The position numbers and the translations under genes are program-made. Shown piece after piece: positions 32,667 through 52,377 of a DNA stretch of 52,457 bases; the first letter of the stretch is position 1, and each line of letters starts with the position of its first letter. The DNA is from Phycisphaerales bacterium (GTDB lineage Bacteria; Planctomycetota; Phycisphaerae; WQYP01): contig DAIDJN010000064.1 in NCBI GenBank assembly GCA_027451365.1, positions 1 to 52,457 of the forward strand. The letters run 5' to 3'. The notes under the pieces were generated by a model. The model ran no database searches. It saw nothing but the letters and a program-made list of their open reading frames with translations, and was not told the DNA's origin.

Positions 32667-33053
32667 TTAGCGACCACCTGCCCGCTGAGCCTGGAAGCAA
32701 TCGCGACAATAAACCGGCCGATTACCGGACGGCTTGAAGGGAACTTCGGTGGGTTGGCCACACGAAGCGCAAGTTGCCGGGAACATCTGACGTGGGCCGG
32801 ACGAGAATCCGCGTCCACCGCCACCGCCGCCACCGCCACTGGAACGACCAGCGCCGGAGAAACTCCGACCGCCGCCGCCGCCACCGCGTTGACCGCTGTC
32901 ACCCTGCTGGGCCTTGCGGGTATCCCGGCATGTTTTGCAACGTTTGGGTTCATTGGTAAATCCACGTTCTGCGAACCGTTGCTGCTCGTCCGCGGTGAAA
33001 GTGAATTCTGTGCCACAATCGACACATACAATTGTTTTGTCGTCGTACGACAT
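32667..33053 (-). CDS. Zinc-ribbon protein with CxxC-x17-CxxC domain and Gly-rich linker
   Basis: CVDCG..F.F...EQ..F...GF.NEPKRCKTC followed by CASCG...VPFKP...PVYCRDC. Confidence 0.9.
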   Translation of the reverse strand: MSYDDKTIVCVDCGTEFTFTADEQQRFAERGFTNEPKRCKTCRDTRKAQQGDSGQRGGGGGGRSFSGAGRSSGGGGGGGGRGFSSGPRQMFPATCASCGQPTEVPFKPSGNRPVYCRDCFQAQRAGGR

Positions 33054-33309
33054 AAGTGTGCTCCACTGGATAAACCAGAAATGAGAGGAATAGAGCGATG
33101 GGCGGTGCGGGAATGGCTTCGGCCAACCTCGAACTCGGGCGCTACAGCCCACAGGCGTTTAGGATTATACCCATTCGGAAATGAAACGCAACTAAATAAT
33201 TTGAATTTTGTAAAAAGGATGATTTCCCGCTATCTGGCTCAACCGTGGGGTAAAAGGGCACCAAACGCCCCAGCTATGGGTTTGCCGCCCCGCGAGAACG
33301 GGGCGGGAT

Positions 33310-36534: not shown

Positions 36535-37371
36535 ATGAAGGTGTTTGGGCGTTGTGGGAACACTTCGCGGGTTCACCCCGCCGCAGGCCCTTCCGCCGCG
36601 CCGTTTATATGGGGGAGAGAAAAAATCGGCAGCGCCTGTAAAAACTCGCCGCAAGACTCCGCATCGAGCAGCCGATTAAGGGACCAGCCCGTGGCCGAGC
36701 GGCCACGTGAGCGGCTTATTGAATGTGGGGCCGAGGCGCTAAGTCCTGCGGAACTTATCGCCATTCTTGTCCGGACCGGCACACGTGGCACGAATGCTTT
36801 GGACATTGGTCGGCAGTTGGTGCAGAAGTATGGCTCGCTTGGTGCCATGGCTCAGGCATCGGTGGAGGATTTACAGAGCGTTCGGGGCATTGGTCGCGAT
36901 AAGGCCGTTACGCTCGTGGCGGCGTTTGCGCTGGCCCGCACACTGGCGCAGGAATTACAGCGCGAACAGCCCTTACTGGATAACCCGGAGGCCATTGTCC
37001 GGCTGCTGCGCGATCAGAACCGTATGAAGGATGTGGAGACCGTGGAGATTGTGCTGCTGAACACCCGCCGCCGCTTGATTCGTATTGAGCAGGTGTCGCA
37101 AGGCACGCTCGATACAATTCTGGTGCATCCCCGCGACGTGTTCAAGGCCGCGATCACCGCTTCCGCGGCTGCCATTGTTCTGGTCCACAACCACCCCAGC
37201 GGAGACCCGACCCCAAGCGAAGCCGACATTAAGGTTACGCGCGAAATTATTCAGGCCGGGAGAGTCTTAAAAATTGAGGTGCTGGATCATCTGATACTTG
37301 GCCGGGCCACGTCGGACAGGCCGAAGGATTACTCGTCCCTGCGGGAGCTTGGATATTTCGAGGAAAGATAG
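36535..37371 (+). CDS. radC: RadC/JAB-domain protein (full-length type with HhH region); start uncertain
   Basis: Motifs ERPRERL, GIG..KA, HPRDVF, HNHPSGDPTPSEAD and LDHLI. Confidence 0.9.
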   Translation: MKVFGRCGNTSRVHPAAGPSAAPFIWGREKIGSACKNSPQDSASSSRLRDQPVAERPRERLIECGAEALSPAELIAILVRTGTRGTNALDIGRQLVQKYGSLGAMAQASVEDLQSVRGIGRDKAVTLVAAFALARTLAQELQREQPLLDNPEAIVRLLRDQNRMKDVETVEIVLLNTRRRLIRIEQVSQGTLDTILVHPRDVFKAAITASAAAIVLVHNHPSGDPTPSEADIKVTREIIQAGRVLKIEVLDHLILGRATSDRPKDYSSLRELGYFEER

Positions 37372-37487: not shown

Positions 37488-38885
37488 ATGATAAAGAAGT
37501 TAGAAATACCGGCCGGCAGCCCTTCGGAGGAGCAACTCAAGGCCTTGCACGCCCGCTTCCGCGCGTCGCTAGCGCTTCTCAAATCCGAGGATTCCGAGGT
37601 GAGGCTACCATTGATTGTTGAGTTTTCAGGTTCCCCTAAATCGGGGAAATCTACAATCATCAATATCCTTACTCATTTATTTAAGCGTCTGGGAGCCGAT
37701 GTGGCGGCTCCAGCGGAGGGTGCCTCGTTACGAACTCCGCCGGGTTTGCGCGACGATTGGCTTTCCTTCAACGCCTGGTCGGGATGTTATGCGCTGCAAA
37801 ATATCCTCATTGATTGTCACGAAAATCCACCATACCAACTCGTAATTTTGGATCGAGGGCTCTTCGATGTTGCCGGATGGATGGAATTCCTATTCCGCGC
37901 CCAAAAGCGTATAACCGATCAGGAGCGCGACGCCATCACTAAGTTCTTCAACCTGGATGCTTGGATGCGCCGGGAGAATATCATCTTTTTGTTTACTGCG
38001 GATCACGAAACATCGCTTGCGCGCGAACGCCATTCCAAGCTCATTGACGAGGAAGGGTCGGTAATGAACAAAGACACACTCAAGCAACTGCAGGATGCCT
38101 ACCAGACTGCCGCTAATGCATTTGAGGGCGATACCGCACCGAAGATTTTCCATGTGGATACATCAGACACCGGGGCTTCTCGCGTAGACTTTCAGCAGGT
38201 CGCGTACGTTGTTGCGGATGCTGTCACCACGCTCATAGAGGATGTGTCGGCACAGTTGTTGTTGGTGACGAAGCCCGTAACATTTGAAATGTTCAACCGT
38301 GACAAGAAGGTTATTGAAGACACCATTCGCGCCATTCTCCAAGACGGCAAGCCTCAATTCCTTAGGCGCGAGCAAGCCGAAAAATCACGTGAGGTGCAAC
38401 AGATCGTCATTTACGCGTTGCTGGTGAACTCGGAGGGTAGATATTTCTTCGCCCGGCGGCGTAGCGATGCCCGGCGTGTGGAGCTGCGGAAAAGGGGGAC
38501 TCTGCTCGTCGGCGGTCACGCCGAGCAGCGCGATTGGGACCCCAAGGCCCCACGTTCCATTTTCCAACGTTGCTTGGGCCGTGAGCTGGATGAGGAGCTC
38601 ATCGGCATTTCCGCCGACCACATCGATCCAATTGGCTTTGTCAACGACAATAGGAACGAAATGGGCAAGCAGCATCTTGCATTTATCCATCAGGTGAAGG
38701 TCGGAGGGAAGGCTGTCATACGCCGACAGGCCCTAGATGCTGAGTTTGGACGTGGCTCCAATGAATGGTTGACCCGTGATGAAATTGCCGCACGGATGGA
38801 TTCATTGGATCCTTGGTCGCAGCTTGTTGCATCCGAATTTTTTAACCTTCCGATGCCGACAAATTCACAGATGCCGCTATTCTAA
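37488..38885 (+). CDS. Thymidylate-kinase-like P-loop domain fused to a Nudix-like phosphoesterase
   Basis: Walker A GSPKSGKST and LDRG motif; C-terminal GGHAE...RELDEEL, GFVND and HLAF. Confidence 0.8.
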   Translation: MIKKLEIPAGSPSEEQLKALHARFRASLALLKSEDSEVRLPLIVEFSGSPKSGKSTIINILTHLFKRLGADVAAPAEGASLRTPPGLRDDWLSFNAWSGCYALQNILIDCHENPPYQLVILDRGLFDVAGWMEFLFRAQKRITDQERDAITKFFNLDAWMRRENIIFLFTADHETSLARERHSKLIDEEGSVMNKDTLKQLQDAYQTAANAFEGDTAPKIFHVDTSDTGASRVDFQQVAYVVADAVTTLIEDVSAQLLLVTKPVTFEMFNRDKKVIEDTIRAILQDGKPQFLRREQAEKSREVQQIVIYALLVNSEGRYFFARRRSDARRVELRKRGTLLVGGHAEQRDWDPKAPRSIFQRCLGRELDEELIGISADHIDPIGFVNDNRNEMGKQHLAFIHQVKVGGKAVIRRQALDAEFGRGSNEWLTRDEIAARMDSLDPWSQLVASEFFNLPMPTNSQMPLF

Positions 38886-38960: not shown

Positions 38961-41387
38961 ATGCAAAATCAGGCAAATGAGGCATTTTCGCGGGTTCTCA
39001 TTGATAAGGCACTGGAATACAGTACCTGGAATTTGCTGGATCCCCGCCAAGTCCGTTTTGAGTTCACCGGGGCCACCGGGCGGGCGGATTATGTACTTTT
39101 CGGCCAGCGTGGCCCGCTTTGTGTTTTGGAAGCCAAGCGCGAAGATGTCGATCCGTATGATGCCAAAGAGCAGGCCCGTGGCTATGCGGAAAATCTCCAA
39201 GCCCCGTTCGTGATTCTCTCCAATGGCCGCGAGCACTGGTTCTGGAATTACGCCCGTAAAAATCAGGACGCCTACCGTATTGAGCGGCTGCCATCTCTTG
39301 CAGACCTCGAGCGGTTGCGTCTGAAAAATCTGCAACCGCCGCGCGCGTTGATGAGCGAGATCATCAGCCCCGATTACCTGCAAAAATTTCGCCCTGACCG
39401 CGAACTGCGGCGCTACCAGATTGAAGCGTTGGACACCGTATCGCGACAGTTTGATGATCACGCCTGCCGCCGATTCCTGCTGGAAATGGCAACCGGCACA
39501 GGTAAGACGCTGCTGTGCGCCGCGTTGATTCGGCGTTTTCTTGCCACGCGCAACGCCGAACGGGTTTTGTTTATTGTGGATCGCATTGAACTGGCCAAAC
39601 AGACGCTGGAAGAATTCAATATCATGCTTGCCGAATACAAGCCGGTTCTCTATAAAACAGCCCGCCGGAAATCCGGCGAATTGCTTGGCTCATCGGTGGT
39701 GGTCGCCACGCTGCAATCGCTTATGGTGGATCGCCGCTACCGCGAGGAATTCACACCGTTTCATTTTGATCTGGTGATTAACGACGAGGCCCACCGGTCC
39801 ATTTACGGAGATGCCAGGGAAGTGGTGCAATTTTTCCAGGCTACGCGCGTCGGTCTGACGGCCACGCCCAAGGCCTATCTGAAAAATGTGGATATTCAGC
39901 AGCTTGAACAGGAAAATCCCAAGGCCCTTGAAGCGCGGCTGTTTCGTGATACCTACAATTATTTCGGCTGCAAGCCTGGCTTTCCAACCTTCCGCTATGA
40001 CATTGTTGACGCGGTGAAGGACCCGGAAGGCCCATTTCTGTGCCTGCCGAAAATAATTGACCTGCGATCAGATATCACCACGCAGGCGCTGGCCGATTCC
40101 GGCTGGGCGGTGGTCATTAACGAACAGGAAGAAAACTTCAAAATCAGGGACCTTGAGCGCAAAATCTTCACCCCCACGCGCAATCGCGTGATCTGCGAGG
40201 CGTTTTTGGCTGAAGCGCAGCGGGATCCGGCGGGAAATATGGGGAAATCTCTGGTGTTTGCGGTGAACCAAACTCATGCAACGGAGCTGACGAAAATTTT
40301 TAACTCGCTTCAGGCCGGTGTTGCCGTCACCATCACCAGCCGGATTGAGGGTGCCGCGGAAATAGCCAAGGAATTTCGCGACGGCAAACGGAGTGAACGT
40401 ATAGCCGTTTCCGTGGATATGCTTTCAACTGGTTACAACTGCCCGGACTTGCTGAATATTGGACTGATGCGGCCCATTTTTTCCCCAACTGAGTACATCC
40501 AAATTAAGGGACGCGGCACGCGACTATTTACCTTTAAGATCGGCAATACGGAATACGAAAAGAAACATTTCCTTATACTGGATTTCTGCGCGGTGGCCGA
40601 ATATTTTGAGGAAAAATACGATTATAGTATTCCGCTCAAGCTGCCGCGCCCCAAGCGGCAATCCGAACCTGCCACCTACCCGCCACATTTACCACAGGGA
40701 CTGGTTTTGCGCGAAGGTGATGGTGAGGATGGCACTGCGGACGTTGTGCCGTCCGGCACGGCCCCGCCGCCGGCGCGGGATATTCCCACCTGGGAGGGCG
40801 TGGACACTCTGGTGAGCCGGGAAATCACCGTTGTCGGGCCGGACGGGCAGAAGGTGGATCTGATGACCTTTCGCGGCGGTTATGAGCGGGACATCAGAGA
40901 TTTTGTCGCCCGGACTCCGGAAATGCAGAGCGCTGTTGAAGCGGAAGATGATGACACGGTGGAAACCCTGGTTAACGAACGGTTTTATCACCGGCCGGAA
41001 ATGTACTACTCCCCGGACAAGCTCATTGTGTCTTATGGCGTGCCGGCCAGCACACCGGCTTTTGTTTACAACGCCGTCGGGCGAAAGCCGCTGCCGACCC
41101 GCGACGCAATTATTTCCGATACGGTGGAATCCATCGCTGCGCGGTTTAATCTGCGTTACAATGAGCAGAAGTGGCTTAACGCCACCGCCGAACTGATTGC
41201 CGAGGATGGCAACTCGCTGAAAAAATTCATGGCGGGGGATATGACGATATTTAACGCTGGCCAGTTTAATCCGCTGGGCGGCGTATCGGCGCTATCCCGG
41301 TTTGAAGCGCGTGGCGAAGTATTTGAAGCGCTGCGGCAGTCCGGCCTTGTTCGGCAATCTCTGTTGGCCACTGCGGCCCGTGCGTAA
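38961..41387 (+). CDS. hsdR: Type I restriction enzyme R subunit
   Basis: Nuclease motif ADYVL...EAK, MATGTGKT, DEAH, GLTATP and QIKGRGTR. Confidence 0.93.
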   Translation: MQNQANEAFSRVLIDKALEYSTWNLLDPRQVRFEFTGATGRADYVLFGQRGPLCVLEAKREDVDPYDAKEQARGYAENLQAPFVILSNGREHWFWNYARKNQDAYRIERLPSLADLERLRLKNLQPPRALMSEIISPDYLQKFRPDRELRRYQIEALDTVSRQFDDHACRRFLLEMATGTGKTLLCAALIRRFLATRNAERVLFIVDRIELAKQTLEEFNIMLAEYKPVLYKTARRKSGELLGSSVVVATLQSLMVDRRYREEFTPFHFDLVINDEAHRSIYGDAREVVQFFQATRVGLTATPKAYLKNVDIQQLEQENPKALEARLFRDTYNYFGCKPGFPTFRYDIVDAVKDPEGPFLCLPKIIDLRSDITTQALADSGWAVVINEQEENFKIRDLERKIFTPTRNRVICEAFLAEAQRDPAGNMGKSLVFAVNQTHATELTKIFNSLQAGVAVTITSRIEGAAEIAKEFRDGKRSERIAVSVDMLSTGYNCPDLLNIGLMRPIFSPTEYIQIKGRGTRLFTFKIGNTEYEKKHFLILDFCAVAEYFEEKYDYSIPLKLPRPKRQSEPATYPPHLPQGLVLREGDGEDGTADVVPSGTAPPPARDIPTWEGVDTLVSREITVVGPDGQKVDLMTFRGGYERDIRDFVARTPEMQSAVEAEDDDTVETLVNERFYHRPEMYYSPDKLIVSYGVPASTPAFVYNAVGRKPLPTRDAIISDTVESIAARFNLRYNEQKWLNATAELIAEDGNSLKKFMAGDMTIFNAGQFNPLGGVSALSRFEARGEVFEALRQSGLVRQSLLATAARA

Positions 41388-41397
41388 AAGGCTAAAT

Positions 41398-42909
41398 ATG
41401 GCAACCGACCTACCAGTAAAAACCAACGGCTCCAATTTCTTCTCCTCGGGCCTGCGCCAGCGGGTGGACCAGCTTATGGACATCCTGTATTCCGGCGGGG
41501 TGAACAACCCGATGGACTCCATTGAACAGATTTCCTATCTGCTGTTCTTACGCCTGCTGACGGAAAAGGATGAGACGCTGGCAGGGATTGATAAAAATTA
41601 TACCCGGATTTTCTCCGGTAAATGGGCACGCTTTGCCTGGGGTAATTTTGTGACCTTGGCCGGTGATGAACTTTTTAACGCCGCCCGTGACGCCATTGAA
41701 AGCCTGCATGAGTTGCCAAACTTAAGCGACACGGGCAAGCTGCTGTTTGGCCGCGCCACATTGAAAATCTATGACCGCCCCACGTTGCGCGCCATCATTC
41801 AGGGCATTGCGGAAATGGACCTTACCGCCCATGATGGCCACGACGTGAAGGGCGACATGTATGAGTATCTGCTTTCCAAGCTTTCCATGTCCGGTACCAA
41901 TGGCCAGTTCCGCACGCCGCGCCATATCATTGATCTGATTGTTGAATTGGTGGACCCGCAGCCCGGCCAGCGAATATGCGACCCGGCCTGCGGCACAGCG
42001 GGTTTTCTGATCTCCTCACTGAATCACATTCTGCGCCAAAACACCAAACCCGCCGACCTGAAGCGGGGGCACATTGATGGCTCACTACTTAAACCGGCGC
42101 AATGGAAATTTCTGGAATCGCAGGCTTTTACCGGTTTTGATAATGACGCCAACATGGTGAAAATCGCCATCCTTAATTTATATCTGCACCAGTTGGAACG
42201 GGCGCGGATTGAGCATTTCAACCCGCTGACTACGGGGTTTGGCGGGGTGTATCCGGGTGAACGCTTTGAAATTATTTTGGCCAATCCGCCATTCTCCGGC
42301 AAGGTGCAGGATGAAAGCATCCTTGCTGATCTGAATTATAAGTTGAACACCCGTGCCACCGAATTGCTATTTCTGAAATGGTTTGTGGATCATCTGGCAC
42401 CGGGCGGGCGGGCCGGTGTTATTGTGCCCAATGGCGTGTTATTTGGATCAACAAAGGCCGCCGTGAAACTACGCGAAGCGCTATTAACCGAATGCGATCT
42501 ACAGGCCATCATCAATTTGCCCAGCGGGGTTTTCAAGCCGTATGCGGGGGTGGCCACGGCCGCGTTGATATTCCAGAAGGGCACACCCACCCAGTCTGTT
42601 TGGTTTTACGATTTGGGGGCCGACGGCCTGAGCCTGGACGACAAGCGCAGCCCCATAGAAGCCAACGACATTCCGGATATTTTGGCCAAATGGCCGGGGC
42701 GTGAAGAAAGCAAAAAAAGCTATCGCGTGGCGATCGAAAAAATCAAGGAAAGCGATTGGAGCCTGGCCGCGGGGCGGTACAGGGCCGTTACCAGCGAAGC
42801 CGTGAACCATGATGCACCCGCCGACATTCTCCGTGAGGTAATTAAATTGGAAAATGAGATTATCCAACGCGGCGAGGAATTGCTGGCAAGGATCAGGGAG
42901 AGCAGATGA
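41398..42909 (+). CDS. hsdM: Type I R-M N6-adenine methyltransferase subunit
   Basis: Motifs GQFRTPR, DPACGTAGF, NPPF and LPSGVFKPY. Confidence 0.95.
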   Translation: MATDLPVKTNGSNFFSSGLRQRVDQLMDILYSGGVNNPMDSIEQISYLLFLRLLTEKDETLAGIDKNYTRIFSGKWARFAWGNFVTLAGDELFNAARDAIESLHELPNLSDTGKLLFGRATLKIYDRPTLRAIIQGIAEMDLTAHDGHDVKGDMYEYLLSKLSMSGTNGQFRTPRHIIDLIVELVDPQPGQRICDPACGTAGFLISSLNHILRQNTKPADLKRGHIDGSLLKPAQWKFLESQAFTGFDNDANMVKIAILNLYLHQLERARIEHFNPLTTGFGGVYPGERFEIILANPPFSGKVQDESILADLNYKLNTRATELLFLKWFVDHLAPGGRAGVIVPNGVLFGSTKAAVKLREALLTECDLQAIINLPSGVFKPYAGVATAALIFQKGTPTQSVWFYDLGADGLSLDDKRSPIEANDIPDILAKWPGREESKKSYRVAIEKIKESDWSLAAGRYRAVTSEAVNHDAPADILREVIKLENEIIQRGEELLARIRESR

Positions 42910-44069
42910 GGCGCTGGTCGGTGACACCGCTGGGCGAATTACTATCGCAACGGCTCGAGGAGTTTCAGCTCACCGACCCGTCAGTCGAGGGCTTTGTTAC
43001 AGTCCGGCTTTATGGGAAAGGAGCGACTCGGCGGAAAATTGGCGACGGCAAGACCCCCGTTCTGCGGGTGGCATACCGCGTGCGTTCAGGCGACCTAATC
43101 TACTCCCGCATAGATGCCCGCAATGGTGCATTCGCAATTATCCCGGACGAACTGAACGGCTTTGTCGTATCAAAGGATTTTCCATCATTCGCGATCAAAC
43201 ATGATCGCATTGATACGCGCTTTCTAATAAGATTCCTCGCAAGCGAGCAGTTCTTCCGCCAATTACAGGCGTCAAGCTTTGGGACGACCAACAGGCAAAG
43301 AATTCAGGAAGCGTCACTGCTCTCATACGGAATTCCCCTTCCGCCGCTGGCGGAGCAGGAGCGGATCGTGAAGTTGCTGGACGAGGCCGACGGACTGCGA
43401 AAACTCCGTGCCCAGGCCGACCGCCGCACCGCCGACCTCATCCCCGCACTCTTTCATGAGATGTTTGGCGAAGTGAAATTCGCTGTTTCCCCAATCGGCG
43501 ATGTTACATCCCTTGTAACCAGTGGCGCAACGCCACGGGGAGGTGAGGAGGTCTATACCACGGAAGGCCCCTACTTTATCCGGAGCCAAAACGTCCAAAT
43601 GAATCGGCTCGATCTGGCGGGCGCAGCGTGTCTGCCAGCCGGGGTCCATCATCAAATGGCCCGCACCCAAGTTGCGACTGGCGACGTGCTGCTAAACATC
43701 ACCGGTGCTTCGATCGGGCGTGTCGCATGGGTGGGCGAACTCGACCGCGCGGCGAACGTCAGCCAGCACGTTTGTTTAATCCGCCCCAAGCCTGATTTGG
43801 TAGATTCGATCTACCTTTCGGCTCTCATCTCCTTGCCGACGACGCAGAATTTTATTCTTCGGAATCAGGCCGGTGCCTCGCGGCAGGCGCTAAACCATAA
43901 GCAGGTGCGAGCCATCGAAATCCCACTGCCGCCGTTACCGCTACAAAATATATTCGCTCGGCGGGTATCTGAAATCCGCCAGATCGAATCCGCCCAAGCC
44001 ACCAGCCGTGCCCGGCTTGATGCCCTGTTCCAGTCCATGTTGCATTGTGCGTTTAATGGGGAATTGTAA
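42906..44069 (+). CDS. hsdS: Type I R-M specificity subunit
   Basis: Two TRDs with IPLPPLAEQERIV and IPLPPLPLQ conserved regions; C-terminal AFNGEL. Confidence 0.95.
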   Translation: MRRWSVTPLGELLSQRLEEFQLTDPSVEGFVTVRLYGKGATRRKIGDGKTPVLRVAYRVRSGDLIYSRIDARNGAFAIIPDELNGFVVSKDFPSFAIKHDRIDTRFLIRFLASEQFFRQLQASSFGTTNRQRIQEASLLSYGIPLPPLAEQERIVKLLDEADGLRKLRAQADRRTADLIPALFHEMFGEVKFAVSPIGDVTSLVTSGATPRGGEEVYTTEGPYFIRSQNVQMNRLDLAGAACLPAGVHHQMARTQVATGDVLLNITGASIGRVAWVGELDRAANVSQHVCLIRPKPDLVDSIYLSALISLPTTQNFILRNQAGASRQALNHKQVRAIEIPLPPLPLQNIFARRVSEIRQIESAQATSRARLDALFQSMLHCAFNGEL

Positions 44070-45550
44070 TGAATGAAACCGATAAATCCCCCGCCCGGAT
44101 ATATTTCACGGATTTTTTCGGCGTTTCTGAGGACACCCTTGCAAAATATGGCGCGTTCAACGTGTCATGCATAGTTGACTTACCTCTCTTTATAGACCCA
44201 TTCCTGCTCTTCACGAGCAAAAAATGGGAGTACCAGAACCTGCACGAGGAAATCATAAAATATCTACGATTTCTGAGGGATGAGTCACTAAAGGGTGGCA
44301 TGAACGACGGCCAGTTAAGGGCGTGGTACTGTTTCCATGAGGTGCGGCAGAACCAGTTTGGATTTTGCTTGAAGGGGAATCGCGGCAGTGGGCTTGGAAT
44401 GGGTTTTGCGCGTGCACTGCATGACAATTTGAACAAGATATTCGGTGATTTTGGGAAAGAGAAGGTCACAAAGGGGTCGCATCTCGAGAAGCTCGTTCTC
44501 ATTCGTGACGGCGTGGGCCGGGATAATATAAGCGACTTCACCACAAACCTGATCAAGGGTTATCTGCTTGGATATACGCAATCGTTCGCAAAGGGGCATA
44601 TCTCGCCGGAAAAATTAAAGCGGGTGAACGTCGCCGGAGTAAGATTTAATTATGAGTTCGGCACTTGGGAGAGTGAAACGTTTGAGTTGCCGTGGCTCGG
44701 CGATGACTACGTGTTATTAACTCCGGAAGATATTCTAACTAAGGATGATACATGGATTAATAAAGAGGATCTGCGAAAGGACTTCCCGGAAATAAGATAT
44801 GCCATCTCGAACCACGCACTCAGGGCTCAGATAGATGCTTACCTGCGAAAATCGTTGCCAAGGAAACCGACCGCTAAGGATAGGCGCGCGGCACTCGAGA
44901 TGACCCTACGACAGTTCCCTGAACTCATCGACTATTATATCCGCGAAAAAGAAAGGCACGGCGGCCAGGCGATCAGCCGCAGTGCAAAGAGGGTGGCGGA
45001 GGTCAACGATCGCTTCGTTCAGAATATCCGTCAATTGATCGCATTAATCGCGACGCATAGCCCGTTTTTTCATACCGCGGATACTACGCTAGAGGAAACA
45101 CGCCGGAAAATCGACTACCTAAAACAAGTCATCGAAAACCAAGACGGCTACAGGTTATTTTACGTGAAGGGGGTGCCAGTCGAGCGGGAAACCGATCTCC
45201 ATATTATGTTCAAACTGCTCTGGGAAGGATCGGTAAGTTCCGTGGATGCCGAAGTGAATAACGGGCGCGGCCCGGTCGATTTCAAAGTGTCGCGCGGTGC
45301 GCACGATAAGACGCTGGTCGAATTTAAACTGGCGAGCAATTCCAAGCTCCAACAGAACCTCGAGAGCCAGGTCGCAATTTATGAGAAGGCGAACAGGACG
45401 ACCCAATCGTACAAAGTCATTGTCTTCTTCTCTTTCGAGGATGAGAAGAAGGTCAAGAGAATATTAGCAAGGTCGAAGGTGCCGCAAGATTCCGGCGTAA
45501 TTCTGATTGACGCTCGCATGGACAATAAGCCCTCCGCGTCGACGGCCTAG
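44069..45550 (+). CDS. Hypothetical protein with C-terminal PD-(D/E)xK-like nuclease motif
   Basis: E...NNGRGPVDF...LVEFKL...Q...YE pattern; TAATG overlap with the hsdS stop. Confidence 0.75.
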   Translation: MNETDKSPARIYFTDFFGVSEDTLAKYGAFNVSCIVDLPLFIDPFLLFTSKKWEYQNLHEEIIKYLRFLRDESLKGGMNDGQLRAWYCFHEVRQNQFGFCLKGNRGSGLGMGFARALHDNLNKIFGDFGKEKVTKGSHLEKLVLIRDGVGRDNISDFTTNLIKGYLLGYTQSFAKGHISPEKLKRVNVAGVRFNYEFGTWESETFELPWLGDDYVLLTPEDILTKDDTWINKEDLRKDFPEIRYAISNHALRAQIDAYLRKSLPRKPTAKDRRAALEMTLRQFPELIDYYIREKERHGGQAISRSAKRVAEVNDRFVQNIRQLIALIATHSPFFHTADTTLEETRRKIDYLKQVIENQDGYRLFYVKGVPVERETDLHIMFKLLWEGSVSSVDAEVNNGRGPVDFKVSRGAHDKTLVEFKLASNSKLQQNLESQVAIYEKANRTTQSYKVIVFFSFEDEKKVKRILARSKVPQDSGVILIDARMDNKPSASTA

Positions 45551-45986
45551 CCAGGCGGCTGCTTTTTATCTGTGCCGGATCCTACGGGCTGGCTCACCGT
45601 TGGGCAGCGGCTCTGCGAGGACTGGACGAAGCGTGCCGGCAGTAGCGAGACGCGTAACCGTCATGCTCTGGTGGCCAAACAGGCACTGTGGGCCCAAGGC
45701 TTTCCGACAGCCGGCAACCCGGGCCAAGCGGCGGTTCCCCCCGCCCCGTGCCCCGAGCGGGTCGGTTCGTCACGGCTGCAGGCCGCCGGCGATGGTTGCC
45801 TGCCCTGGCGAAATCCGGTAAGCTGGACCTCAGTCTCGTCGTGTTGCGCATCCGCCCCGGCTCCGTGCGAAAGCAGCAAATGGCCCGACCCTTGGGGTGC
45901 AAGTTGGCCAGATGTTCGGAACCGAGCGATGCCGACTGCGACCCGAAGGTCGTGCGGAGGGCATCGCGTGAAGGAGGAACGAAGTT

Positions 45987-47075
45987 ATGTCCGATTCGAC
46001 AGGCATTGAAGGGCAAAATAGCGACCGGGGAGCCGGATCGACCCCGGCGGACGCTGGCACCAGAATGCCCTCAGGGGGGGATACAACCGGGGGAGGCCCC
46101 CAATCCGCAGAAGCGCCAGCTAACGGCGCCGAGCCGCAATCGCCCGCCCAGGTTGATCCGATGAGCGAATTTTTTAGCGTTATAGGCCGAGGCGAGATTG
46201 AGAAAGACAAGTCTAGGATCGAGAGCTTGATCGGGGATGTTGTTACGAGCACGATTGGTAAACAGCCCATTTCGGCAGACTATAATGTGTTAATCTTCCA
46301 CAGCCCCAATGCCATTGTGCATGGGCATGCCGATAAAATCTACGAAGCTGTGAAGGCCTTCGGGAAGCCCAAGCCGCTGCTTCTGGTGCTCTTCTCGCCC
46401 GGCGGCCAAATCGACGCGGCCTACCTAATAGGAAAACTGTGCAGGGAGTTCTCGACGAAACACGCGACAAAGTTCGCGATTGTCGTCCCACGCCAGGCCA
46501 AATCCGCCGCCACGCTTTTGTGCTGCGGCGCCGACGAGCTCCACATGGGGAGTCTGAGCGAATTGGGGCCGATAGATCCGCAAATTGACGGGGTCCCGGT
46601 TCTCGGCCTGAAAGACGCCGTCGATCACCTTGCCGACCTTGTAGAGAAGCACCCCGCTGCGTCCAAAATGTTCGCGGCCTACCTTCGGGAATCCATGCCA
46701 CTGATTAACCTGGGCTACTACGAGCGGGTCGCGAAATCGGCGGTTCAGTATGCGGAGCGGCTACTCAGGCTCCCTGCAGGAGTCCAAAACAAGCTCAAAA
46801 AAAACCCAACCGAGATAGCCCGAAAGCTCGTGTATTCCTACCAGGACCACAGCTTCGTGATCGACAAAGAGGAGGCGACGGACATCTTTAGCAGCGAAAT
46901 TGTTAACTCAGATTCCAAGGAATACTCCCTAGGAAATGCGGTCTACGAGGAACTTTCCCGTTTTGGCGCCATTATGGAGGTATTAAATTACAATTTTTCC
47001 TTCGTCGGATCGTGTGAATCAGGTTGCAATCTGAGCAGGAAAAGCCGGAGGCCTTCCGGTTCATTCGGGGCTTGA
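45987..47075 (+). CDS. SDH-family (ClpP-fold) serine protease-like protein
   Basis: Motifs SPGG, AKSAATLL, LGPIDPQ and DHSFVI; SD GAAGGAGG upstream; low-complexity N-terminal extension. Confidence 0.85.
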   Translation: MSDSTGIEGQNSDRGAGSTPADAGTRMPSGGDTTGGGPQSAEAPANGAEPQSPAQVDPMSEFFSVIGRGEIEKDKSRIESLIGDVVTSTIGKQPISADYNVLIFHSPNAIVHGHADKIYEAVKAFGKPKPLLLVLFSPGGQIDAAYLIGKLCREFSTKHATKFAIVVPRQAKSAATLLCCGADELHMGSLSELGPIDPQIDGVPVLGLKDAVDHLADLVEKHPAASKMFAAYLRESMPLINLGYYERVAKSAVQYAERLLRLPAGVQNKLKKNPTEIARKLVYSYQDHSFVIDKEEATDIFSSEIVNSDSKEYSLGNAVYEELSRFGAIMEVLNYNFSFVGSCESGCNLSRKSRRPSGSFGA

Positions 47076-47149
47076 TGGTGACCCGGTATCCGATATCCCC
47101 AAGGGACAGACCGCAGGGCACCGACTGCCCACGCGAAAAGGAGTAAAAC

Positions 47150-47485
47150 ATGGCCGTGATGGTCTCAACCAATAATCCCGCCGCCCTCTGGCGGCTGGTG
47201 CAAGAGAAGATCGGGGACGGGTCCATAAAAACATGGGACTTGATTAAGGGGACCTACCTCACGCACAATCCGGCGCAATGGAATCGGAACGCATTCTTCA
47301 GGGTTCTCATCCAAGAGGAACAGTTGAACTTCTTCATTGTTCCGCCCGAAGGCCAGAAAATATCGACGGAGGACTATGCGGTATACCATGGTCGACTGAT
47401 CGAAATGTTGCTTGCCCACTTTGACCGAAGATTTCGGCGTGCGTCCGCGTCGGCCAACCCAGTACCGGGCGATTCAGTGGGCTAG
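47150..47485 (+). CDS. Small hypothetical protein
   Basis: 111 aa with SD AAGGAG, globular composition and YAVYHGRLIEMLLAHFD; co-oriented with the protease. Confidence 0.75.
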   Translation: MAVMVSTNNPAALWRLVQEKIGDGSIKTWDLIKGTYLTHNPAQWNRNAFFRVLIQEEQLNFFIVPPEGQKISTEDYAVYHGRLIEMLLAHFDRRFRRASASANPVPGDSVG

Positions 47486-48026
47486 AACTGCCCAATTGCG
47501 ACACACACCGCTTTCGTGACCGGCCAACCCAGACGGCGGACAAGCCGCCAATATTTCCACAGCGTCATCCCCGCAGTCGCCGTAGTCAGTTTCCCCCGTG
47601 GGGCGTAATGGAGCCGAGAGTTATTTTCGGCCAACGACGCAACTTATATCACGGTCCCCGGCGAAATTCAGTAGGCCGTCTGGCCCCGTCCTGCGCGTCC
47701 GAAACCTTAGCAGCAATTTCGACGTGAATTAGGACAACGAGTAGGCTGCAAGCGCGAACGTTCCGCTGTTAGCATGATGAATGCGGAAAATTCGGTAAAC
47801 GTCCCGCGAAGCGCCGGTAGACTCAGGCCGTGTGTTTTGTTTTAAATTTCAACTGCTGCGGTCGGATGGGTGGTCGACGGTTTGGCTATTTTGATTCTGG
47901 CAGGTTGCGGGCCGTCCGCGCCTCTGGGCCGGGTTTTTACGCGGCGGATTTTCCGCTACGGATGGGGCGTGGCGGCCATCGCCGCGGAGCGGGGGAATTT
48001 GGAGCAGGTGACCAGGCGAGCACATT

Positions 48027-48141
48027 TGGCGGGCGGGACTGCGCTCAATGGACAATGATCAATGATCAAAGGGGCGCGGGGGTTAGAGGTTTTGGAGGGC
48101 GGATTGCGCTGGGTTACGGGGGCGGGAGCGCGGGCACGATG
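48027..48141 (+). repeat. Degenerate direct repeat, left of the AbiE-VapBC block
   Basis: 48027-48058 matches 51299-51330 at 29/32; 48083-48114 matches 51385-51416 at 26/32; followed by gcgggc(a/g)cgatg. Confidence 0.75.
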
Positions 48142-48171
48142 GGGTCAAATAGTTGCTTTTATGTCGGAATC

Positions 48172-48230
48172 GGTATATTATAAATGCATAAAGACGAACT
48201 GGGTGAGACTTTATGGAGACACAATATACC
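48172..48230. promoter_or_regulatory. Inverted-repeat operator of the AbiE operon
   Basis: GGTATATT-N7-CATAAAG, a 15-bp spacer, then CTTTATG-N7-AATATACC, overlapping the abiEi start. Confidence 0.6.
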
Positions 48231-49046
48231 AAGAGGTCCAAGGGGATCGATGCTTCGAATCGTGCCTTGCTCGACCAGATGGTCCGTTCGATTTCCGGTC
48301 CTTTTACACCAGCACAGGCAGCACAACTGCTTTCCGTTGACGTGGTGCGCGCCAGAAAACTGCTTGCTTACCTAGCCTCTCGAGGTTGGCTATCCCGAAT
48401 CCGCAATGGCCTTTATACCCCAATCCCGCTTGGGGCGACTGCGCCCACACAGTGGAGAGAGGATCCGTGGATTGTCGCGGCGACAAGCTTCGCACCGTGC
48501 TATCTAGCAGGCTGGAGCGCCGCCGAACACTGGCACCTTACCGAGCAGATTTTTCGTGATGTCATGGTGATCACGGCGGCACCCGTCCGAACCAGGATGG
48601 TGAAAATTCAGGACACGTCGTTTCGTCTGAGCCATCGGAAGGAAAGTGAACATTTCGGACTGGCCATTGTCTGGAGAAATCAAACCAGCGTGAAGGTATC
48701 CGATCCGTCACGCACACTCATTGACATGCTTGACGATCCCGCCATGGGAGGCGGAATTCGTCACGTTGCCGATGTGCTTGATGCCTGCCTTCGCAGTGAA
48801 CATCGCAACGATGATAAGATCATTGCATACGCCGACCGGTTGGGAAATCACACGGTTATGAAACGCCTGGGCTATCTTATCGAGACGCTTAAAATGGATG
48901 CCGAAACACTTCTGGGTGCATGCCTTGATCGACGCAGCCTGGGCCTGACCAAACTTGACCCATCAAGTAAGAGCCAAGGACGCATCCTGAAGCGATGGGG
49001 GCTTCGCATTAACGCCACGATACAACCAAGGGACAACCATTCATGA
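48213..49046 (+). CDS. abiEi: Type IV TA antitoxin AbiEi (wHTH regulator)
   Basis: Motifs LASRGWLSRIRNGLY, YLAGWSAAEHW, SDPSRTLID and KRLGYL; ATGA overlap with the toxin gene. Confidence 0.88.
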   Translation: METQYTKRSKGIDASNRALLDQMVRSISGPFTPAQAAQLLSVDVVRARKLLAYLASRGWLSRIRNGLYTPIPLGATAPTQWREDPWIVAATSFAPCYLAGWSAAEHWHLTEQIFRDVMVITAAPVRTRMVKIQDTSFRLSHRKESEHFGLAIVWRNQTSVKVSDPSRTLIDMLDDPAMGGGIRHVADVLDACLRSEHRNDDKIIAYADRLGNHTVMKRLGYLIETLKMDAETLLGACLDRRSLGLTKLDPSSKSQGRILKRWGLRINATIQPRDNHS

Positions 49047-50434
49047 TAAACCGGCTTGCCATTGAGGAACGAGTTCGTGAATGGGGCTTGCGCGAGGACG
49101 TGGTGGAGAAGGATTACGTTCTTGGCTGGGTGCTATGGGGCATTGGAGCCCATCCATCGCTTTCCGTTAATTGGGCGTTCAAGGGTGGTACCTGCCTCAA
49201 GAAGTGCTATATCGAAACCTACCGATTTTCCGAGGACCTTGACTTTACGGTGCTGCCCGGAGGCCCTATTCTCAATGCTGATCTTGATCCCATTTTCCGG
49301 GCATTACTCCAAAACGTGGCTGACGAGTCGGGAATTGTTTTCAGCGGACGTCCGCCCCTCTTCATGACACACCCCTCCGGCAACTACACTGAGGGACGCA
49401 TCTACTACCAAGGGCCGCGAAATGCCCCACACGTTGCAAGCATTCGGCTCGACCTAAGCGTATCTGAGAAAATAGCAAGACCTACTGTGCTGCGTTCCAT
49501 CGCTCATACGTTCCCGGATCAACTTCCCCCGCCACAAACTGTTCGCTGCTATTCATTTGAAGAACTCTTTGCAGAGAAGCTCCGTGCAATGGGCGAACGC
49601 TCCAGGCCGCGTGATCTTTATGACATCGTAAATCTTTATTGGCGCACAGATTTACGATCTCATCCGGAAATCATTCGTACAGTTCTTGAGGAAAAGTGTA
49701 GATCGAAGAATGTTCCGATGCCTACCGCAGCAACTATTATGCGCGAAGATATCCGGAGCCAAACCGAGGCCGATTGGTCTAACATGTTGGCACACCAGTT
49801 ACAGGCTCTTCCTCCATTTGCACATTTTTGGGATGAACTGCCAGATCTCTTCAATTGGCTTGACGGCACGGCTCCGATTGCGACTTTGGAGGCCATTCCG
49901 CGAATCACCGGTGAGGAGACGACGGAGCAGTGGAGCCCTCCACCCACCGTTTGGACGTGGCACGCCGGCGTGCCACTTGAAACCATCCGCTTTGCTGCAG
50001 CGAACCACCTGTGCATCAATCTTGGTTACCAGGGCACAAAACGCATTATCGAACCGTATTCGATTCGGCAGACGCAGGAAGGCAACCTCATTCTGCACGC
50101 GATCAAAGTCGATTCACGAGAGACGCGTTCATATAGTGTAGATCGTATTCAAAGCATTGAAGTCACCATGCGGCCATTTACCCCAGTCTTTCTGGTCGAG
50201 TTTTCTGGAGCAGGACCAATTGAGGTGTCAGCCTCCACAGGCGAATTGATGACTCGACTACGACAGGGGGCCCATCATGGTGGTAGCGGTATTGTGTACA
50301 TCGTGGAGTGCCCCTACTGCGGAAAAAAGTTCAAACGAACGACAGATGACACATCGCTGAACCCACACAAGGACACAAGCGGCTATCGTTGTTCAGGACG
50401 AACCGGATATCTCGCAGATACGCAATATGACTGA
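49043..50434 (+). CDS. abiEii: AbiEii nucleotidyltransferase toxin fused to a WYL domain and C-terminal Zn ribbon
   Basis: Motifs EKDY, FKGGT, RFSEDLDF and RPRDLYD; WYL-like Y...KRIIEPYSI...RSYSVDRI; terminal CPYC...H...C. Confidence 0.88.
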   Translation: MINRLAIEERVREWGLREDVVEKDYVLGWVLWGIGAHPSLSVNWAFKGGTCLKKCYIETYRFSEDLDFTVLPGGPILNADLDPIFRALLQNVADESGIVFSGRPPLFMTHPSGNYTEGRIYYQGPRNAPHVASIRLDLSVSEKIARPTVLRSIAHTFPDQLPPPQTVRCYSFEELFAEKLRAMGERSRPRDLYDIVNLYWRTDLRSHPEIIRTVLEEKCRSKNVPMPTAATIMREDIRSQTEADWSNMLAHQLQALPPFAHFWDELPDLFNWLDGTAPIATLEAIPRITGEETTEQWSPPPTVWTWHAGVPLETIRFAAANHLCINLGYQGTKRIIEPYSIRQTQEGNLILHAIKVDSRETRSYSVDRIQSIEVTMRPFTPVFLVEFSGAGPIEVSASTGELMTRLRQGAHHGGSGIVYIVECPYCGKKFKRTTDDTSLNPHKDTSGYRCSGRTGYLADTQYD

Positions 50435-50548
50435 CATTTTGCCAGTTGGTACTGGCATGCATCAATTACCCAGCCGAACTCCCGCCTCCTAAATTGCAGT
50501 CTGCCGCCCCCACCGCCTTCTATTTGCGTTTGCATTGCAAAGTAGTAA

Positions 50549-50568
50549 TAATACTTGTAAGAGTATTA
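50549..50568. promoter_or_regulatory. Putative vapBC operator palindrome
   Basis: TAATACT-N6-AGTATTA in the AT-rich region upstream of the antitoxin. Confidence 0.45.
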
Positions 50569-50631
50569 CCATACGTCGCCCGCTGTTAACGATCAAAAGC
50601 GTGGAGCGGCCGGTGCATAGGAGTTTCAACC

Positions 50632-50853
50632 ATGAAAGTGACAGTGAAGGGCCAGGTAACAGTTCCTCGGGCGATTCGCGAACGCGCTGGAATTCTGCCA
50701 CATACGGACGTGGAATTTATCATTCGCGGCCGGGAGGTTGTTTTACGCAAGGTATCCAAGGGCCGACGAGGAAACGCTTTGATTGCACAGATGCGCGGCC
50801 GCGCCGGCACCGGCTTATCGACCGATGAGATTATGAAACTTACACGGATGTGA
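50632..50853 (+). CDS. vapB: AbrB/MazE/SpoVT-family antitoxin (VapB-like)
   Basis: KVTVKGQVTVPRAIRE...G..P..DVEF. Confidence 0.88.
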   Translation: MKVTVKGQVTVPRAIRERAGILPHTDVEFIIRGREVVLRKVSKGRRGNALIAQMRGRAGTGLSTDEIMKLTRM

Positions 50854-50856
50854 CAC

Positions 50857-51270
50857 ATGCCCGGCATCATGGTGGATTCTAATGTGTTGCTCGATATTCT
50901 CACTGAGGATTCCCAATGGTTTCAATGGTCCAGCGAGGCATTGGCCGAGGCGGCGGAACGCCATACGCTGGTCATCAATGCGGTAATTTTCGCCGAGGTA
51001 TCGGTGCGATTTGCCCGTATTGAGGATGTCAACGAAGCACTTCCGCCGGAGTGGTTCGAACGCCGTGCCATGCCTTACGAGGCGGCCTTTCTGGCGGCCA
51101 AATGCTTTTCGTCATATCGACGGCGTGGCGGTGAGAAGATAGCGGTATTACCTGATTTTTTTATTGGCTCGCATGCGGCGGTTGAAGGACTCAAGCTGAT
51201 CACGCGCGACAAGGCACGTTACCGAACTTATTTTCCACGGTTGGACATCATCAGTCCCGCTGGAAAATAA
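50857..51270 (+). CDS. vapC: PIN-domain toxin VapC
   Basis: Motifs VDSNVLLD, AEVS, PDFFIGSHA and LITRD. Confidence 0.9.
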   Translation: MPGIMVDSNVLLDILTEDSQWFQWSSEALAEAAERHTLVINAVIFAEVSVRFARIEDVNEALPPEWFERRAMPYEAAFLAAKCFSSYRRRGGEKIAVLPDFFIGSHAAVEGLKLITRDKARYRTYFPRLDIISPAGK

Positions 51271-51298
51271 GCGTGGACCCCAACTTACCAGGCCTCTA

Positions 51299-51436
51299 TG
51301 GCGGGCGGCGCTGCGCTCAATGAACAATGAGAAACCAGACAGCCTCGGCGCGGGGCCTTCATGTGGCGCGGTGCGGGGTGCAGCTTAAAGGTTTTGGATT
51401 GCGGATTGTTTTGGGTGGCGGGGAGCGGGCGCGATG
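51299..51436 (+). repeat. Degenerate direct repeat, right of the AbiE-VapBC block
   Basis: Partner of 48027-48141, with the same three blocks in the same order. Confidence 0.75.
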
Positions 51437-51501
51437 CCCGCGTCTTAATGGTGTGCGGTGGGTGGTGACGGGCATTTTGGGCGGGGGCCGGCGGTTCGGC
51501 T

Positions 51502-52014
51502 TCATCGCGTCGGGTCGATTCTGCTGGGATCAACGCCTAATGATTTGGCGATTCGGTCAATGGTTCGGTGGGATGGGCTAAGTTCCGCATTTTCAATGCG
51601 GCTGATGTGGCTTTGCGTCAGCCCACACTCCCGCGCCAGATCCACCTGCGTCTTGTTGGCCGCTTCACGTAGTGACCGAACACTGGCGGCCACGTGTTGA
51701 TTCCATCTGGATAATCCGGCGTGCTCGGCCGGCTGATCGAACTTGAGTTCAATGGCCGTATATTTTTCCTGATCCAGTATCTTCACCATGCCGCTGCGAA
51801 TTGCCTCCAATTCCTCCTCACTGCGGGCGGTCTCCAGCGCTTTTACCAATTCAAACCAGTCCTGCCGATCTTGAGCCGGCAGGCTGCTGATCCGTTCAAT
51901 AACGATGCCGATCGCCATCGTTATTGCCGCCTCACCGACGTTCGTTGTTTTTCGTATTGTGTCTAATTCTTTTACACCAACCATTTTACACCTATCCTTG
52001 CATAAGCTAATCAT
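51502..52014 (-). CDS. XRE-family HTH protein (HigA-like antitoxin/regulator)
   Basis: C-terminal LREAANKTQVDLARECGLTQSHISRIEN...IAKSLGV. The true start may lie further downstream. Confidence 0.85.
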   Translation of the reverse strand: MISLCKDRCKMVGVKELDTIRKTTNVGEAAITMAIGIVIERISSLPAQDRQDWFELVKALETARSEEELEAIRSGMVKILDQEKYTAIELKFDQPAEHAGLSRWNQHVAASVRSLREAANKTQVDLARECGLTQSHISRIENAELSPSHRTIDRIAKSLGVDPSRIDPTR

Positions 52015-52026
52015 TCTGAGCCGAAA

Positions 52027-52377
52027 CTAGGTTGCCTGTTCGTCAGCCCCTCCTTTGCTCCGAACCGGCATGGCCGGAATCGCGCCCGGAGTTTCACCGA
52101 ACAATCGCTTTCGGCGACGCATCGTTACACGGGTTCCATCTGGCGTCGGCCCATTATTTTCTTTCTTAATGACGCCCAATATGACAATCGCGCCCCTGGC
52201 TCGGTCGAGAAAAAAGAAAACCCGAAGATTTATTTTCCCAAGCACACCATGTTTTTCCCGCAGCTCATGGAAATCCACAACGGCATCCCCCGAACAAAGG
52301 TTGCTGTGCGTTGGGTCCAGGGCAAATTCATATAGAGTGCCATGTATATCAAGTGTGATTTTGATAGCGTACCTCAC
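52027..52377 (-). CDS. RelE/HigB(Gp49)-like toxin, putative
   Basis: HELRE...NLRVFFF...IVILGVIKK pattern, directly upstream of the XRE gene. Start uncertain. Confidence 0.6.
   Translation of the reverse strand: MRYAIKITLDIHGTLYEFALDPTHSNLCSGDAVVDFHELREKHGVLGKINLRVFFFLDRARGAIVILGVIKKENNGPTPDGTRVTMRRRKRLFGETPGAIPAMPVRSKGGADEQAT

Follow-up and report, generated by a model that had tools for sequence, protein, structure and literature searches.

A kinase-Nudix fusion protein with a candidate clamp-binding tail, encoded in a restriction-modification island of a Phycisphaerales bacterium

The open reading frame at 37488..38885 (forward strand) of the window, by which we mean the whole 52,457-nucleotide stretch of DNA that was analysed, is a real gene encoding a 465-residue protein in which a kinase domain is fused to a Nudix domain. 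Comparison of homologues indicates that this pair of domains is an old module, which is fused here and encoded as a tightly coupled two-gene operon in Dehalococcoidia and other lineages. The protein ends in a tail that resembles motifs for binding the DnaN sliding clamp (beta-clamp); this tail was absent from a preliminary description of the gene, and it suggests a connection with the replisome. We favour, with a probability of roughly 0.45, a reading in which the kinase and the Nudix domain constitute an accessory, clamp-tethered module that would edit the dNTP pool at the replication fork. Both domains are already known and the fusion has been labelled automatically; as far as sequence comparison goes, the new feature appears to be the clamp-like tail, and no described system was matched.

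Architecture of the fusion protein

The gene call was supported by homologues and by an AlphaFold model of the product (pLDDT 91.8, pTM 0.88). The gene starts 116 nt downstream of radC and ends 75 nt upstream of hsdR. A scan for promoters and terminators, with 3 sites of each where 2.0 and 3.7 were expected, gave nothing above chance. Matches of the protein to Pfam and NCBIfam profiles were all below threshold, and the ESM Atlas returned only unnamed clusters (0.98-0.99). The preliminary description had proposed a thymidylate kinase-like and a Nudix-like domain from their motifs. All of these are present (GSPKSGKST at residues 48-56, DRG at 122-124 and GGHAE...RELDEEL at 342-371), and both folds were matched. 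It had also called for a check against described systems, and none of the PADLOC 2.0 families matched the protein at E≤0.1.

The kinase domain (residues 1-254; 37488..38249, +) matched the fold shared by thymidylate kinase (TMK), deoxynucleoside kinase (dNK) and PPK2 over residues of about 40 to 255, with Z scores of 15.9-16.4 that were tied among TMK, PPK2, dCK and AbmG. Profile alignment with hhalign slightly favoured TMK (98.3% to TIGR00041, and 96.8% to dNK, PF01712, for which only 8 rows were available). The domain had no Pfam dNK or PPK2 match at E≤0.1, a search of PDB sequences with its profile came back empty at E≤0.01, and the TIGR00041 score of the fusion protein, 15.6 bits, was far below the curated cut-off of 83.25. 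The family shares with TIGR00041 and PF01712 the fold, the P-loop, a Glu after strand 2 and the DR motif. Across 206 kinase domains E45, G48, P50, K54, E77, D122, R123, D127, W131 and R179 were conserved at a rounded 100%; these include residues of the P-loop GSPKSGKS (37629..37652, +) and of the motif running from DRG through D127 to W131 (37851..37880, +). F94, N95 and W97 were 95-99% conserved in the same set.

Unlike TMK, the family has an invariant F94-N95-x-W97, together with D127 and W131, at the sites of the TMK motifs ELLLF..R and S..AYQ, and its invariant Pro50 aligns with the P-loop Asp of TMK. We presume the roles of that Asp and of the thymidylate-site residues in making this comparison, and N95 and D127 resemble residues which we take to read the amino base in dCK (dCK numbering). 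The altered acceptor site suggests that the kinase would act on a non-thymidine deoxynucleoside or deoxynucleotide. Again unlike TMK, the family is found in hosts that retain a separate, normal tmk: a canonical copy was present in 50 of 50 tested carriers and in the window's own genome, and replacement of the housekeeping tmk was thus rejected. At two loci (L119:2665-5564 and L123:5519-8359), a divergent family kinase is preceded, two genes upstream, by a second gene resembling thymidylate kinase; L119 also encodes a membrane protein that weakly matches HAD.

The Nudix domain (residues 256-455; 38253..38852, +) is of the Tm1382/YmaB type. It matched Tm1382 (PDB 3e57) in sequence (phmmer E 3e-8; profile E 2.4e-29) and in structure (VIA Z 21.0, rmsd 2.3, 173 residues aligned), and it shares with Tm1382 and Bacillus subtilis YmaB the fold and the motifs R-x-x-A-E...Q, GGH, RExxEE, H and W-S. 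The Nudix box GGH...RELDEE (38511..38597, +) is intact, with G342, G343, H344, R365, E366, E369 and E370 all present and 85-99% conserved, and the last four at 85-89% among 169 full-length homologues. This type of Nudix, which we take to be COG4112, carries the JGI label 'predicted NUDIX family phosphoesterase' and was found in 129 of 301 Planctomycetota genomes. In contrast to the copies studied here, standalone members had no kinase partner within 1.5 kb in 28 of the 29 top Planctomycetota loci, and the standalone and kinase-linked domains fell on opposite sides of one branch (SH-aLRT 93) in a tree of 93 rows for which every second linked copy was taken. A plasmid homologue of the Nudix domain directly follows nrdI-nrdE-nrdF, as ymaB does, and a helicase and a primase precede a homologue in a phage. 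Preliminary dNTP pyrophosphohydrolase activity has been mentioned for YmaB (PMC5960316, as far as its accessible text goes). Since YmaB is also termed a putative RNA pyrophosphohydrolase in the part of another source available to us (PMC10860749), the substrate of the Nudix domain may be other than a dNTP.

The closest described design is that of the defensive dCTP deaminases of the AvcD type (Tal et al., 10.1101/2021.04.26.441389), in which an N-terminal P-loop kinase domain is likewise joined to a domain that destroys nucleotides. In the present family, however, the effector is a Nudix domain and the C-terminal zinc deaminase domain is absent; the family is often split into two genes, carries a clamp-type tail and has a lower rate of defence neighbours, and the fusion protein lacks a PADLOC match. 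Literature searches, covering mostly open texts without supplements, returned nothing for Nudix with thymidylate kinase and anti-phage or for COG4112, and, among the papers listed, no description of a kinase-Nudix module or of a Nudix protein with a clamp motif. The kinase-Nudix pair may be mentioned in two papers of comparative genomics that treat nucleotide-centred conflict and DNA-modification systems.

Linkage, distribution and genomic neighbourhoods

Of the 70 homologues found by a protein search, the closest to bear a name belong to Phycisphaerae, and a profile built from 55 of the 70 recovered 478 clusters at 50% identity (E≤1e-30). The family spans several phyla under automatic names only; members bear the JGI label 'predicted NUDIX family phosphoesterase/thymidylate kinase', so the fusion is automatically annotated yet uncharacterised. 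For the analysis of loci the 80 best were taken from each of two sets, 259 genome loci and 370 metagenome loci, a sample skewed to close relatives because the best-scoring loci were chosen. The ORF caller reported 59 of 169 loci as fused, the remaining 110 including split operons, truncated contigs, 5 loci with the Nudix gene only and 1 without a call. In complete split loci the kinase and Nudix genes overlapped or were separated by ≤20 nt in 69 of 70 cases, and a quick tree of the kinase (145 rows) required at least 4-5 changes between the fused and split states. The 'standalone gene' of the preliminary description is therefore a feature of the window's clade only, since at the majority of related loci each domain has its own gene, the two lying side by side.

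The module is rare. Among 251 Dehalococcoidia genomes the kinase was found in 9, with the Nudix gene directly downstream in all 9, and a tenth genome had a partial Nudix only; in the window's class it was found in 7 of 201 genomes, the window's own included and one copy being in pieces. These counts in two classes bear out a patchy distribution, as of an accessory gene. Tight linkage, rarity and the canonical tmk of carriers together argue that this is a coupled, accessory module and not a housekeeping kinase. Close homologues at four loci (L011, L016, L009 and L092) are frameshifted or deleted. None of 72,556 plasmid and 50,697 phage records contained a full-length match; they yielded only Nudix-domain matches, and IMG/VR held only 3 loci of the family.

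In the window, the gene is preceded by radC (JAB domain; 36691..37371, +), the sole radC detected in the genome, and followed by the type I restriction-modification (R-M) genes hsdR-hsdM-hsdS (38961..44069, +), identified by domain and PADLOC matches, with AbiE and toxin-antitoxin genes beyond. DNA comparison showed that the segment from radC, at its left end, to hsdM (36.6-42.9 kb) is common to two relatives, G018 (85-88% identity) and G030 (76%), but has no match in a genome of the same genus (G001). Upstream housekeeping genes were only 64-76% identical; as the shared block stands above them, the gene arrived here with the R-M island. The local association with R-M that had been proposed is thus borne out as co-transfer with radC-hsdR-hsdM, and the position just before hsdR holds here, but hsdR is retained as a neighbour only in the closest relatives and its movement with the fusion gene, together with hsdM, is seen in two relatives and not family-wide. 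The homologue at L011, at 81-84% identity, lies broken among housekeeping genes.

The rest of the island (window 44069-52377) encodes a 493-residue protein that partly matches PADLOC PDC-M36A, a Clp protease of the SDH type, AbiEi, AbiEii fused to WYL and to a weakly matching zinc ribbon, an AbrB/PIN pair, an HTH gene and a Gp49-like gene. On the other side, at window 32667-33152, lies a gene for a small protein with two treble-clef zinc fingers joined by a glycine-rich linker.

Enrichment of defence genes around homologues across the family, the first check proposed in the preliminary description, found no clear support in these small samples. The control consisted of 40 windows of 16 kb placed at random in 20 carrier genomes, of which 19 were Dehalococcoidia. 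The PADLOC comparison (±4 genes, E≤1e-10) covered 37 loci drawn from a non-syntenic set of 47, after 89 loci had been set aside for having too few neighbours, and 39 control windows, the control L210 and one gene of L209 lying outside the scan. Any match was seen at 14/37 loci of the family and in 15/39 control windows. After removal by hand of housekeeping look-alikes the counts were 7/37 and 7/39 (p 0.57), or 8/38 and 7/39 (p 0.48) when the defence island L127, which had been collapsed in error, was added. Hand-labelled Pfam matches within ±2 genes gave defence neighbours at 10/53 loci versus 3/40 (p 0.10), on small samples, and defence or mobile neighbours at 17/53 versus 5/40 (p 0.024). 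Enzymes of nucleotide metabolism (5'-nucleotidases, HADs, RNR and a dCTP deaminase-like protein) adjoined 7/53 loci versus 0/40 (p 0.016), with a control unmatched for these mostly metagenomic loci; labels of 'ambiguous' neighbours (p 0.005-0.016) were hand-assigned and so were not relied on. For comparison, in the preprint on nucleotide depletion (bioRxiv 2021.04.26.441389) 53% of close homologues of the dGTPase are reported to lie near defence genes, and a cut-off of >0.33 is applied over a wider window of ±10 genes.

A minority of loci lie plainly within defence operons, with BrxL, AbiE and Cas3-like helicases at L127, a type I R-M system at L128, TIR and Fic at L020, SLATT at L079, and a methyltransferase and GmrSD at L036. 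At other loci synteny with hisS, aspS-rpoD or lpxD-lpxI is stable, and in several Dehalococcoidia lineages the kinase-Nudix pair is stable between housekeeping genes. Adjacency to R-M systems as a family trait was rejected on a hand count of 5/53 versus 1/40 (p 0.18), and so was a conserved third partner, recurring neighbours reflecting lineage synteny.

Single loci showed further arrangements. At L079:7127-9376 a SLATT-like gene for a two-helix membrane protein overlaps the start of a split pair whose Nudix lacks the tail motif. One strand of L099:3068-11047 carries dnaE, a small gene, a 5'-deoxynucleotidase (NT5C), the kinase, the Nudix gene and an RmrT/RmrA-like pair. Two Phycisphaerae records (L006 and L012) have the fusion between lpxD-like and lpxI genes, and at L213:6316-7713 a fused copy sits within a prophage head module, antiparallel to the terminase and portal genes.

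The C-terminal tail

The fusion protein ends in QMPLF (residues 461-465; 38868..38882, +), in a predicted disordered segment where pLDDT falls below 50 at residues 463-465. QMPLF fits the consensus Q-phi-x-L-F given for beta-clamp binding in the accessible parts of two sources (PMC9690074; bioRxiv 2026.05.27.728225), and no other ORF called in the window has such a tail. The fusion protein shares a short motif in a disordered C-terminus with clamp-binding proteins such as Pol III alpha, Pol IV, MutS and Hda. The clamp clients named in the literature text that we could consult are polymerases, repair enzymes, regulators and a toxin, and the word 'Nudix' has zero occurrences in the text of a clamp-binding review, whereas the protein described here is a Nudix enzyme.

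We then counted tails that carry Q-x-x-[LFM]-[FLM] or a hexamer motif past the last helix, a definition looser than the published motif, chosen after viewing alignments and applied to related, non-independent sequences. Of 125 kinase-linked Nudix domains 7 without an anchor were dropped, and 64 of the other 118 had such a tail, against none of 32 standalone ones. In 500 shuffles of the tails the count averaged 9.4 and never exceeded 21, and among representatives of 50% clusters the motif was present in 39 of 107 (shuffle mean 6.5). The background in the last 15 residues was about 1% (15/1122 neighbours and 27/1923 ORFs of the own genome), similar tails occurred in 36 of 2532 own-genome proteins, and a stricter motif was found in 19 of 126 tails versus 1 of 1122 in the background. 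By group, the motif was present in 44/59 Chloroflexota copies, 10/25 Planctomycetota fusions, 8/15 other split forms and 2/19 distant fusions. An LF-type pair was retained in 35 of the 54 non-matching tails, and was kept in 25/25 Planctomycetota fusions and 17/19 distant fusions. Prediction of a complex between the genome's own DnaN and residues 431-465 gave scores of 0.02 and 0.01 against a mark of 0.32, with the control complexes left unfolded, and carries no weight on either side of the binding question. Judged from the motif and its conservation, the QMPLF tail probably binds DnaN.

Possible roles of the module

In the favoured reading, the Q-x-x-L-F tail would dock the Nudix domain on the DnaN sliding clamp, and the domain, if it shares the activity mentioned for its family, would cleave unwanted dNTPs to dNMP and PPi beside the polymerase. 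The likely targets would be damaged or base-modified nucleotides, for example, more speculatively, methylated ones released by turnover of methylated DNA. The kinase domain would bind ATP and a non-thymidine deoxynucleoside or deoxynucleotide, and may re-phosphorylate the normal dNMP only, such that the pair proofreads the pool; alternatively, it may gate the Nudix domain allosterically. What the comparisons establish are the fold, the intact motifs, the tight kinase-Nudix linkage, the conservation of the tail and the dispensability of the module; the pool-editing role further draws on the plasmid and phage homologues of the Nudix domain, on the preliminary activity of YmaB and on the neighbouring enzymes of nucleotide metabolism. 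Against it, the full motif is missing from about half of the tails, and an enzyme with a sanitising function ought to occur in more than 3-4% of genomes; moreover, several close homologues are broken, and the Nudix substrate may not be a dNTP at all.

The main rival is depletion of nucleotides against phages, in which the kinase would sense a nucleotide change linked to infection and the Nudix domain, switched on by it, would then destroy a dNTP; the clamp tail would direct the Nudix domain to forks loaded with the clamp, among them the forks of phages relying on the host's clamp. A patchy and easily lost gene, moving with radC-hsdR-hsdM at 76-88% DNA identity, is consistent with such a role, as are the five defence operons, the excess of defence or mobile neighbours and the fused copy in the prophage. 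The defensive dCTP deaminase, moreover, requires its own kinase domain according to the accessible part of the preprint (bioRxiv 2021.04.26.441389). However, PADLOC neighbours are without excess where over half of the close dGTPase homologues reportedly lie near defence genes, synteny with housekeeping genes is stable in several lineages, and the plasmid and phage records contain no full-length copy, and we consider this explanation rather unlikely.

A cargo role, in which the module would tune dNTP supply for replication or transfer of a mobile element or counter the host's defence, could draw on the same prophage copy and horizontal block with radC and on the integrase, resolvase and IS neighbours of several loci. 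Mobility genes are, however, absent from most loci, and the scarcity of the family in IMG/VR and its absence at full length from plasmids and cultured phages make this very improbable. An accessory pair for salvage or clean-up in the bulk cytoplasm, acting on nucleoside analogues, RNA 5' ends or other NDP-X, with a tail that binds something else or nothing, would suit a family that has many housekeeping neighbours and no conserved third partner. The own genome lacks a dNK-family kinase at E≤1e-15, and in many Planctomycetota the standalone Nudix gene of the YmaB type belongs to the core genes at family level. This explanation leaves a clamp-type tail restricted to kinase-linked copies unexplained, and it too seems improbable.

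What the pool-editing reading and fork-directed phage defence would have in common is a kinase-gated Nudix enzyme that rides the clamp and edits or drains dNTPs at the fork, whether as a local proofreader or as an anti-phage effector that spares the bulk pool, and this wider formulation we put forward tentatively. If the tail does bind DnaN, a nucleotide-pool enzyme would be tethered to the bacterial replisome, for which our literature searches found no precedent, and local cleaning or control of dNTP pools at forks would become testable. Were a defence role to hold, a fork-targeted form of nucleotide depletion would be added to those described.

Two homologues also differed in their Nudix content. 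P0071 and P0163 carry, respectively, a duplicated Nudix domain (663 residues) and an extra, partial Nudix region (575 residues).
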